Shown one piece after another: positions 9,001 through 12,000 of a stretch of DNA of 64,000 nt. A program made the position numbers. The stretch is taken from IMG/VR virus record IMGVR_UViG_2897352509_000007. One strand, given 5' to 3'. Source of the stretch: a virus. Its lineage: Duplodnaviria; Heunggongvirae; Uroviricota; Caudoviricetes. Within the stretch, counting starts at the first letter, position 1. Every line of letters begins with the position of its first letter.

Positions 9001-12000
9001 TAGTAACGGCCTGAGCGTTCCGCCAGTCCGGCGACAACTGGCGGCCCCCAAACGCCCGTCGGGGCCAACGCCAATTGAGTTGCTGAAACAGGAATATGAA
9101 CGCCGGAAAGCGGCTGGTTTTGTTTGAGTTGAGAAGTGATTTTTTACCGGGAGGAAATTTATGGAGACTGTTTTTGACGCACTGAAAGCGATGGGAAAAG
9201 CCACGTCGGTATAGCTGGCTGCGCGACTTGATATCAGTCGTGAAGAAGTACTGAACGAGCTGTGGGAACTGAAAAAGGCTGGCTTCGTTGATAAAAGCGT
9301 ATACACCTGGCGTGTGGCTGATAACAACGTTCAGCAGGAACAGCCAGCGCCAGAAGAAACCACCACGGCAACAGAAGCGAAAATCTCAGAGTGCGATTTA
9401 ACCGCGACGATTGAACAACGCGGACCACAAACGGCGGATGAACTGGCTACGCTGTTCGGTACAACATCCCGCAAAGTTGCTTCAACGCTGGCAATGGCAA
9501 TCAGCAAAGGTCGTCTGATTCGCGTAAACCAGAACGGTAAAATTCGTTACTGCATACCAGGTGATAATTTACCAGCAGAGCCGAAAGTTGAATCGGTAGC
9601 GGAAACCGATGGTAAAGCCTTTCCTCAGCCAGCCGGTGTTGCGTTACCGGTACAGAAAGATGCAACACAGGAAGATATTAAAACAGAAACTGTGGCGGAC
9701 ATTGTGCAGTCGCTGCCATCGTTTACTGCAACGCGAGAAGATGATTTGATTTTGCCATCGCTGCATATGGCAAATCGCGAACTGCGTAGGGCGAAGAATC
9801 ATGTCCAGAAGTGGGAGCGAGTCTGCGCCGCGCTGCGGGAGCTGAACAAGCACCGGGATATGGTTGCCGGGATTTGTCGGAAGTCCGGGCAATGAGCGGA
9901 TGGTGCAGGCCTGAAATCATGATACTAACAATGAAGGTAAAATGCATCGGCAGTCTGATTGGTCGTAGTGAGGCGGCGGTCAGGATGAAAGCCCAGGTTA
10001 AGGGAATAAGCCTGATTCTGCGGGGTGATTTTCACCAGTCAACAAAATATCCGTAGCGCGATAACGGTCAAAAATTATGGCGCTGACACTTTTGTGCCAC
10101 TGGAGATGACTGTACCTAAGTTCAGGGGAGAAGAACACGTCCGGTGGGATGGTCGGGCCAGATTTAAAGGGCAGGTCATGGCTCCAGCCTGTACGCTGGC
10201 AATGGAGGCTGCCTGGCGGGAAATTGATATGGGAACCACGCCACTCAGGGATTTACTGCCGGTCCAGAGAATAAATTCCTGTTACGGTTACACCACTGTG
10301 ATCTTGCAAGTGCAGGAAAGTAGGTCTACACGGTAACGCGAGTGCGTGTAACTTTTGATGTCATTCCCGTAGAAACACCGGACAAATTTTCGCTGACAGG
10401 TCATGCAGAAGGTATAAATCTGCAGATTATGGACAATTACGGATATCCGGCAAGAGCCGGAAAAAGCATGCCGCCTCTAATTCTCAGTGGAAGATGGACT
10501 TGATTATACTCATTGCATTGTCAGAAATAGTTATCCATTAAAGGCTGGCTATTCCAAACAGGATGTTGATTACAAAAATGTAATCAACATGTAAGGTTTA
10601 TACTCTTCAATATGCGTATAATTTTCCTTATTTTGTTGACTTTAAATAACAAGCTATGCACGAGGTAAAGTCGGATAAGTTTATCTGGATGTAATATATA
10701 TTATTTGTAGTGTTTATAACTTTATTTCATGATAACCAATAAAAGGAGTTTTTTATGAGGAACATAATGGCAGGTTTTTTAATATTCCTGTCTTCTGCTG
10801 CTTATGCTGATATCAATCTGTATGGTCCTGGTGGCCCGCATACAGCCTTGCTTGATGCAGCCAAACTTTATGCCGAAAAAACAGGTATTATAGTGAACGT
10901 TCATTACGGCCCACAGAACAAATGGAATGAAGATGCCAAAAAAAATGCAGATATCTTGTTTGGCGCATCAGAACAATCTGCTCTGGCTATCATTCGGGAC
11001 CATAAAGACAGCTTCAGTGAAAAAGATATTCAGCCTCTTTATCTGCGAAAAAGTATTTTACTGGTAAAGAAAGGTAATCCTAAAAATATCCGGAGTATTG
11101 ACGACCTGACCAGACCTGGGATTGGCGTAATTGTTAATGATGGTGGTGGTACCAGTAATACATCAGGCACTGGCGTCTGGGAAGATATTGCCGGACGTAA
11201 AGGGAATATAGAAACTGTCGCCGCAATCCGAAAAAATATTATTTTATATGCGCCCAATAGCGGAACTGCACGTAAGGCTCTTGAGAATCAGCCTGGAGCA
11301 GATGTCTGGATAACCTGGGCTGACTGGGCAGCCAGTAATCCAGAAATTGGTGATGTCGTGGAAATAGCGCCAGACTACGTGATATGGCGTGATATGAACA
11401 TTACAGTACGTCAGGATGCAAATGATGAAACCCGTCGATTTGCAGAATGGCTACAAACCGATGAAGCGGCGCCTGCATTCAAAAAATATGGCTGGACCAG
11501 GAAAGGCACTTGACATCCTCGTCCTTCAGGACGTGGATTCTTTTTCCGGATGCCGCGCCAGCGGCATGTAGGGGCAGCTCACAAAACGGAAAAAATTGTA
11601 CGCTAAGCCTCGCCAGGTGAACTGAATTCATTCCGATATGGGAATTCCCATATCGGGCGAAAACGGTTTGCTGTAACGGCAGAGTTAAGTAGGATTGCTG
11701 CGGGTGCTTGAGGCTATCTGCCTCGGGCATGAACACCAACGGCAGATAGATAAAAGCCCCACCCGACTATAAATCGAAGTGAGGCCCCTATATGCTCGTC
11801 ACATATAGATTGCCTCTTACGGACCGAAAGGTCAAGGAGAAGCAGGCTATGAAGCAGCAAAAGGCGATGTTAATCGCCCTGATCGTCATCTGTTTAATCG
11901 TCATAGTGACGGCACTGGTAACGAGGAAAGACCTCTGCGAGGTACGAATCCGAACCGGCCAGACGGAGGTCGCTGTCTTCACAGCTTACGAACCTGAGGA

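Follow-up and report, generated by a model that had tools for sequence, protein, structure and literature searches.

The stretch of viral DNA analyzed here (IMG/VR record IMGVR_UViG_2897352509_000007; Duplodnaviria; Heunggongvirae; Uroviricota; Caudoviricetes), hereafter called the window, is 64,000 nucleotides long and contains an open reading frame (ORF) at positions 10755–11513 (+) that an initial annotation had described as a 252-amino-acid secreted protein resembling substrate-binding proteins. The ORF, including its ATG start, is as described, and comparison of its sequence with characterized loci indicates that it is almost certainly paa, also named adfO (z2053 in O-island 57), which an ompW-integrated lambdoid prophage carries as cargo (a moron). 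Paa stands for porcine attaching-effacing associated protein, a colonization factor of Escherichia coli O157:H7 and pig-pathogenic E. coli, and the ompW-integrated prophage with paa occurs in E. coli O157:H7 and other E. coli that carry the enterocyte effacement locus (LEE). The initial annotation missed that this lone binding-protein gene is a named gene, paa/adfO, with published mutant phenotypes. The gene has been named since 2003, is included in RefSeq and in virulence-gene panels, and is a polymerase chain reaction (PCR) marker for high-risk E. coli that produce Shiga toxin (STEC).

The DNA of a 2-kb query around the ORF is 100% identical in E. coli O157:H7, in O111:H8, and in isolates from pigs. 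Among the 5426 complete genomes of E. coli, 572 contain 80% or more of the 2-kb stretch. At the identical loci, the RefSeq label reads "paa: AcfC family adhesin Paa" (WP_001449026.1), and the protein encoded by the ORF is 100% identical to a homologue (P0001) named 'AcfC family adhesin Paa'. The same moron recurs in other prophages, where the initial annotation had thought of looking for it: eleven deposited phage records (PPompW_*) are also 100% identical, with the annotation 'Paa/adherence factor AdfO'. The whole window matches the O157:H7 strains EC4115 and TW14359 at 99.3–100%. Published adfO PCR primers (PMC4366395) have exact matches in the window at 10829–10846 and 11311–11330, and the product predicted from the window is 502 bp, versus the published 501 bp. 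According to a review on the O-islands of O157 (PMC8565820), adfO (z2053) lies in O-island 57 and is always accompanied by ckf (z2054), a hok-like gene. This gene is the hokD of the window, and the pairing agrees with the paa–hokD layout found here. The sequence and context of Paa/AdfO in E. coli (DUF1627 gene, fimbrial remnant, paa, hokD/ckf, and ompW prophage) are therefore the same as in the window, with no difference.

The coding sequence and its protein family

The features of the gene itself are as follows.

10755–11513 (+): coding sequence (CDS) of paa/adfO, ATG start, from a six-frame ORF list; 252-amino-acid precursor of 27.7 kDa
10744–10748 (+): Shine–Dalgarno sequence AGGAG, 6 nt before the ATG; kept in the copy on an enterotoxigenic E. 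coli (ETEC) plasmid
10755–10808 (+): predicted Sec signal peptide, residues 1–18 (MRNIMAGFLIFLSSAAYA), from a heuristic reading of the sequence
11160–11180 (+): codons of the family-invariant motif S134-N-T-S-G-T-G140, invariant in alignments of 36 and 58 sequences

The first ATG is a better start codon than the second, because homologues align from it and because it provides the charged n-region of the signal peptide. The second ATG is used in some phage records and in PHROG 11834 (248 amino acids); the PHROGs category for Paa is only 'unknown function'. The N-terminus consists of a charged n-region and a hydrophobic core (mean Kyte–Doolittle value of 1.65), and signal peptidase I is predicted to cut after A-Y-A, which is an A-x-A site (MRNIMAGFLIFLSSAAYA|D). 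Alignment with the crystallized mature chains of PEB3 begins at Paa residue 19. The protein that had been called secreted thus looks like one exported to the periplasm via a cleavable Sec signal peptide, as predicted by heuristic reading. Mature Paa would comprise 234 amino acids with a computed mass of 25.8 kDa and a computed isoelectric point (pI) of 6.0. A lipoprotein is ruled out, since the protein has no Cys anywhere and no lipobox. Comparison with the ETEC plasmid allele gives a ratio of nonsynonymous to synonymous substitution rates (dN/dS) of 0.07, and comparison with the allele of E. albertii gives one of 0.055, indicating that Paa is under strong purifying selection.

The likeness to substrate-binding proteins is borne out by profile searches. 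Residues 20–247 match Pfam SBP_bac_11 (PF13531) with an E-value of 5.5e-34 and 118 bits against a cut-off of 25, covering profile positions 1–226 of 227. A phmmer search of PDB sequences retrieved PEB3 of Campylobacter jejuni (E 1.2e-81, residues 11–248) and AcfC of Vibrio cholerae (E 3.5e-81, residues 16–248), and a profile of the AcfC/PEB3 family raises the PEB3 and AcfC matches to E-values of 1e-110 to 1e-120. The next best matches are sulfate- and molybdate-binding proteins with E-values of 1e-4 to 1e-7. Sbp, CysP, and ModA share with Paa the broad oxyanion-binding class of type II solute-binding proteins, and the similarity is remote; membership of Paa in any of these families is ruled out by scores far under the curated NCBIfam cut-offs (22.6 bits versus 288 for PRK10752 and 18.3 versus 62.5 for modA). 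Homology therefore places Paa, over its full length, in the AcfC/PEB3 family, a distinct group within the oxyanion-binding class of type II solute-binding proteins. This fold assignment derives from full-length homology to solved structures at an E-value of 1e-81; a single-sequence AlphaFold2 model, with a predicted local distance difference test score (pLDDT) of 41 and a predicted template modeling score (pTM) of 0.31, was unusable.

Family alignments of 36 and 58 sequences, with identity down to ~50%, contain 45–50 invariant columns, which cluster in the motifs GPGGPH, SNTSGTGxWED, NSG, and WxTWxDW. T136 and S137 of Paa, invariant in both the 36 and the 58 members, align in the phmmer alignment with T138 and S139 of PEB3 (a numbering offset of +2). 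In PEB3, the T138/S139 pair reportedly forms the ligand site (Min et al. 2009), and a double mutation of this pair is reported to have abolished the stabilization of PEB3 by ligand. The PDB entries 3fir and 3fjg differ by E/K just before SNTSG, a difference that fits the K135E mutant reported for the same study.

PEB3 (PDB 2hxw, 3fir, 3fjg, 3fjm, and 3fj7) resembles Paa in being a full-length homologue of the same length that contains SNTSGTG including the Thr-Ser pair, and in being an orphan-gene colonization factor. Unlike Paa, it is encoded on the chromosome, is basic (pI 9.4 versus 6.0), and has known ligands, namely, 3-phosphoglycerate (3-PG) and phosphoenolpyruvate (PEP), whereas Paa has no known ligand. 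PEB3 is N-glycosylated at a DFNVS sequon that is missing in Paa. The Paa segment aligned to DFNVS reads DSFSEK. AcfC (VC_0841; PDB 4jb7) is likewise a full-length homologue and a colonization factor, and its gene lies on a mobile pathogenicity island. It differs from Paa in its surroundings, since acfC stands beside the chemoreceptor gene acfB, whereas paa has no sensory or transport neighbor.

Orphan status of paa and its homologues

No permease or ATPase gene was found within several kb on either side of paa in the window, as the initial annotation had noted. The neighborhoods of family members were surveyed at 80 homologue loci from GTDB contigs (one genome per species), in which ORFs were called and three genes on each side were clustered, yielding a neighbor set of 418 proteins from 79 loci. 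This set includes 242 singletons, and even its largest cluster spans just 10 loci. The top 20 clusters include an extracytoplasmic function (ECF) sigma factor, LysR regulators, histidine kinases, a sulfite-oxidase-like enzyme, transposases, and housekeeping genes, as well as secondary transporters (DcuC, SLAC1/TehA, SBF-like, and YeiH-like). Neither a permease nor an ATPase of the ATP-binding cassette (ABC) type was present among the representatives of these 20 clusters, and a motif test for Walker A plus LSGGQ detected an ABC ATPase-like gene within three genes at 1 of the 79 loci. Because of this near absence, orphan status is a trait of the whole AcfC/PEB3 family and not a result of phage capture. 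In V. cholerae, acfC lies directly downstream of acfB, a dCache chemoreceptor gene, and in Enterobacterales the homologues have neighbors of the kind found on mobile elements or in virulence regions (TraT, omptin, integrase, insertion sequence (IS) elements, and plasmid repA).

Two transporter-based descriptions of the gene were rejected. Paa as a canonical binding protein of an ABC importer, encoded in an operon with permease and ATPase, is not supported, as no such genes are adjacent. The initial annotation had named as a refuting case that the gene might be a fragment of a larger transporter operon; this is ruled out, since the ORF is complete, has a signal peptide and a terminator, and belongs to an orphan family.

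Distant family members (~45–48% identity) occur in marine alphaproteobacteria (L062, L065, L073, and related Roseobacter/Paracoccus loci). The Roseobacter/Paracoccus members recurrently adjoin SLAC1/TehA-type anion channels, SBF-like transporters, and a sulfite-oxidase-like molybdoenzyme, and these neighbor genes hint at a sulfur-oxyanion ligand in this branch.

A portable cassette in a lambdoid prophage

The features flanking the gene are listed below.

10088–10549 (+): fimbrial major-subunit gene, dead and reduced to a fragment; blastx matches amino acids 24–182 of a 195-amino-acid subunit in three frames, with both ends missing
10554–10754 (+): AT-rich upstream region, presumed promoter or regulatory region; 26.9% GC; travels with paa on ETEC plasmids
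11520–11545 (+): terminator-like hairpin CGTCC TTCA GGACG plus T run, from a pattern match; 7 nt after the stop codon
11702–12004 (+): hok/sok type I toxin–antitoxin module, not part of paa; Rfam sok at 11702–11851 (103.9 bits) and hokD CDS at 11849–12004

The GC content of paa (43.9%) and especially of its spacer (26.9%) contrasts with that of the window (49.6%) and of the flanking replication genes (51–60%). An AT-rich upstream region of ~400 bp had been proposed for 10340–10754; the description holds for the spacer at 10554–10754, whereas the left half is the 3′ part of the fimbrial remnant. Positions 10551–11573 are homologous to a copy on an ETEC IncF plasmid (86% identity), which lies there between IS elements and repA, and related paa copies are found on other plasmids as well. 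The cassette so delimited consists of ~200 bp of upstream DNA, paa, and 60 bp of downstream DNA that includes the terminator-like hairpin, of which the hairpin proper lies at 11520–11533. A perfect 28-bp palindrome (12+4+12) is located at 10563–10590 (ATGTTGATTACA AAAA TGTAATCAACAT) and occurs only once in the window; the ETEC plasmid copy keeps only its ATTACA-AAAA-TGTAAT core. This palindrome could be an operator. A TATAAT sequence at 10617–10622 is conserved in the ETEC plasmid copy. A consensus promoter scan of 10554–10754 yielded no passing candidate, and we infer a promoter function for this region. With its low GC content, its portable cassette, and its terminator-like hairpin, paa fits the moron idea put forward in the initial annotation: cargo of low GC content that has its place among the early genes of a lambdoid prophage. 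A perfect 24-bp palindrome with an EcoRI site (CCGATATGGGAA|TTCCCATATCGG) separates the paa terminator from hok/sok at 11633–11656.

On its left, the cassette abuts a fimbrial remnant, for which the RefSeq tag reads 'frameshifted; internal stop'. The remnant is 86% identical in DNA sequence to an intact chromosomal fimbrial gene, and its intact relative belongs to a chaperone–usher operon beside pgtABC in other E. coli. The homology of the remnant stops at 10553, so that the junction with the paa cassette is sharp. Judging from its sequence, the remnant is non-functional and part of the same mosaic insert. Because it has lost both ends and is scattered over three frames, a functional link between the remnant and paa is rejected. 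The adjacency of the intact fimbrial homologue to pgtABC, taken together with the binding of 3-PG by PEB3, is suggestive, and nothing shows it to be more than coincidence. A chimeric query in which the two phage flanks were joined found no case of their adjacency in the 5426 E. coli genomes, and the boundaries of the insertion rest on mosaic junctions only.

The position of paa between replication genes and hok, as first described, was likewise found. Left of paa are prophage replication genes (DnaT-like, P-like, and DUF1627 genes and a 54-amino-acid ORF), and on the right is hokD at 11849–12004. Just 3′ of hok/sok, a weak isrK-like match is located at 12013–12094 (24.9 bits, under the gathering score). 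Two integrase genes, at 1–1131 (−) and 58275–59405 (−), are identical at 375 of 376 positions and lie 57 kb apart. The window is one whole lambdoid prophage plus the start of a second, in tandem insertion with the same integrase type.

Two phage-borne tRNA genes (16481–16556 and 16637–16713) are located downstream of a DNA-methyltransferase gene; the first (16481–16556) is called tRNA-Met (CAT) by ARAGORN versus tRNA-Ile in RefSeq, and it fits a lysidine-modified Ile2 tRNA. Other cargo of the paa prophage comprises a Lom/Ail outer-membrane protein gene (40738–41337) in the tail region and, following the lysis genes, a PerC-family regulator gene (~21280–21594), both named from the EC4115 annotation. 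The right end of the same prophage carries the type III effector genes nleA (44091–45416, −), nleH1-2 (47234–48154, +), and nleF (48220–48789, +), also named by homology to the EC4115 annotation. A decayed integrase is located at ~46077–47070, and a copy of ISEc8 (49755–51293) comes after the nle genes.

Possible roles of Paa in adherence

Regarding published phenotypes, a paa mutant of porcine enteropathogenic E. coli (EPEC) lost attaching/effacing (A/E) activity, and Paa is thought to act early in pathogenesis (PMC2749873). For O157:H7, an adfO mutant that adhered less to HeLa cells and secreted several proteins less is described in a review (PMC8565820). The homologue AcfC is periplasmic and dispensable for adhesion to Caco-2 and HT-29MTX cells, and it affects chemotaxis to mucin and gut distribution (PMC5976639). 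The peb3 gene product has been described as a transporter for 3-PG; the gene is repressed by BumR and is required for chick colonization (PMC12469816). Among the roles floated in the initial annotation, sensing has a precedent in AcfC, through its effect on chemotaxis to mucin (PMC5976639), and nutrient scavenging has one in PEB3, as a 3-PG transporter (PMC12469816); both are reasonable ideas. Receptor masking found no support.

Considering the closed-pocket fold, the widely conserved pocket, the family-wide absence of a transporter, and the slightly acidic character of mature Paa, the protein probably, though with clear reservations, binds a small anion in the periplasm and acts through a host-encoded membrane partner, so that adherence is promoted in an indirect way. 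The 252-amino-acid precursor would be exported by Sec and cleaved after Ala18, and the mature 25.8-kDa protein would fold in the periplasm into two lobes, as an AcfC/PEB3-family solute-binding protein of type II. Paa would then close on a small anionic ligand at the pocket formed by the invariant SNTSGTG, GPGGPH, and NSG motifs. By analogy with PEB3, Sbp, and ModA, the ligand may be a host metabolite bearing a phosphate, sulfate, or carboxylate group. Lacking its own transporter, Paa would pass the ligand, or a signal of its presence, to a host-encoded chemoreceptor, sensor kinase, or importer, and the defects of paa/adfO mutants in adherence, A/E lesions, and secretion would be indirect effects instead of a loss of direct receptor binding. 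What we infer in this scheme is the class of ligand, the action from within the periplasm in E. coli, and a partner in the membrane. A more specific proposal, which we regard as a tentative possibility, is that Paa is not an adhesin but a phage-delivered periplasmic sensor. It would bind a host anionic metabolite (3-PG, PEP, or a sulfated compound), dock onto a chromosomal chemoreceptor or sensor kinase, and tune type III secretion and attachment.

Several points weigh against an indirect action of a small-anion binder. Both the literature and RefSeq label Paa an adhesin, and the loss of adherence and of A/E activity in mutants would also be explained by a direct adhesin. AcfC bound heparin, chondroitin sulfate, and mucin in an enzyme-linked immunosorbent assay (ELISA), so that binding of host polymers is possible for the family (PMC5976639). 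Furthermore, Paa has no known ligand and no identified partner protein, and the structural model with a pLDDT of 41 is too poor for viewing the Paa pocket.

A rival idea is that Paa is a true adhesin, which would reach the surface or the medium (e.g., by type 2 secretion or in vesicles), bind sulfated glycans or mucin of the host, and mediate the first attachment before intimin–Tir. The names 'adhesin' and 'adherence factor' given to Paa, the weaker adherence and lost A/E activity of paa/adfO mutants, the ELISA results with AcfC (PMC5976639), and the first description of PEB3 as an adhesin, to judge from titles cited in PMC5976639 and PMC12469816, all speak for it. However, Paa shares the closed-pocket fold of periplasmic binding proteins and has no anchor, lipobox, Cys, autotransporter, or fimbrial features. 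The homologue AcfC localized to the periplasm and was dispensable for adhesion to Caco-2 and HT-29MTX cells (PMC5976639), although AcfC and Paa differ on this very point, since paa/adfO mutants adhere less. The residues conserved across free-living and host-associated taxa in the family alignments form pocket-type motifs and not a host-specific surface. In addition, the slightly acidic mature Paa is ill-suited to polyanion binding; its pI of 6.0, versus 9.4 for PEB3, argues against simple electrostatic binding to sulfated glycans. Taken together, direct adhesion by Paa seems rather unlikely.

Another alternative regards Paa as an additional binding protein feeding an ABC importer encoded on the chromosome, which would widen nutrient uptake in the gut, the colonization defects then reflecting fitness and not signaling. 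A model for this arrangement is Sbp of E. coli, whose gene is an orphan and which works with a transporter encoded at another site (CysUWA). In C. jejuni, 3-PG reportedly boosts the growth of the wild type but not of peb3 mutants. Nevertheless, ABC genes are almost never adjacent across the 79 loci, which is unusual for a family that feeds importers, no docking partner is known in any species, and the drop in secretion of several proteins by the adfO mutant is not obviously nutritional. A dedicated role in nutrient import is thus quite improbable. The remaining alternative, that paa is a passive hitch-hiker, foreign DNA carried along with a dead fimbrial fragment and functionless in the lysogen, draws on its position beside a decayed gene fragment and on the mosaic, remnant-rich nature of O157 lambdoid prophages. 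Against this stand the intact ORF in the same 2-kb context in 572 of 5426 complete genomes, the dN/dS of 0.05–0.07, the retention of its own upstream region and terminator by the cassette on plasmids, and the published mutant phenotypes. Given the purifying selection and these phenotypes, a functionless paa is close to refuted and has only a very slight chance of being correct.

These considerations expose a mismatch between label and fold: the protein is called an adhesin, yet it has the fold of a closed-pocket periplasmic binding protein, with a pocket that is invariant from marine bacteria to gut pathogens in a family that almost never has a transporter adjacent. Whether 'adhesin' is a misnomer is a fair question, although not one first raised by this window. 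If Paa were a sensor module, the prophage would give its lysogen a new sensory input, and the drop in secretion and adherence of the adfO mutant would be the read-out of a lost signal. An explanation of how a binding protein carried by a phage brings about a gain of adherence would come from identifying its ligand and its partner in the membrane, and the same question applies to PEB3 and AcfC.

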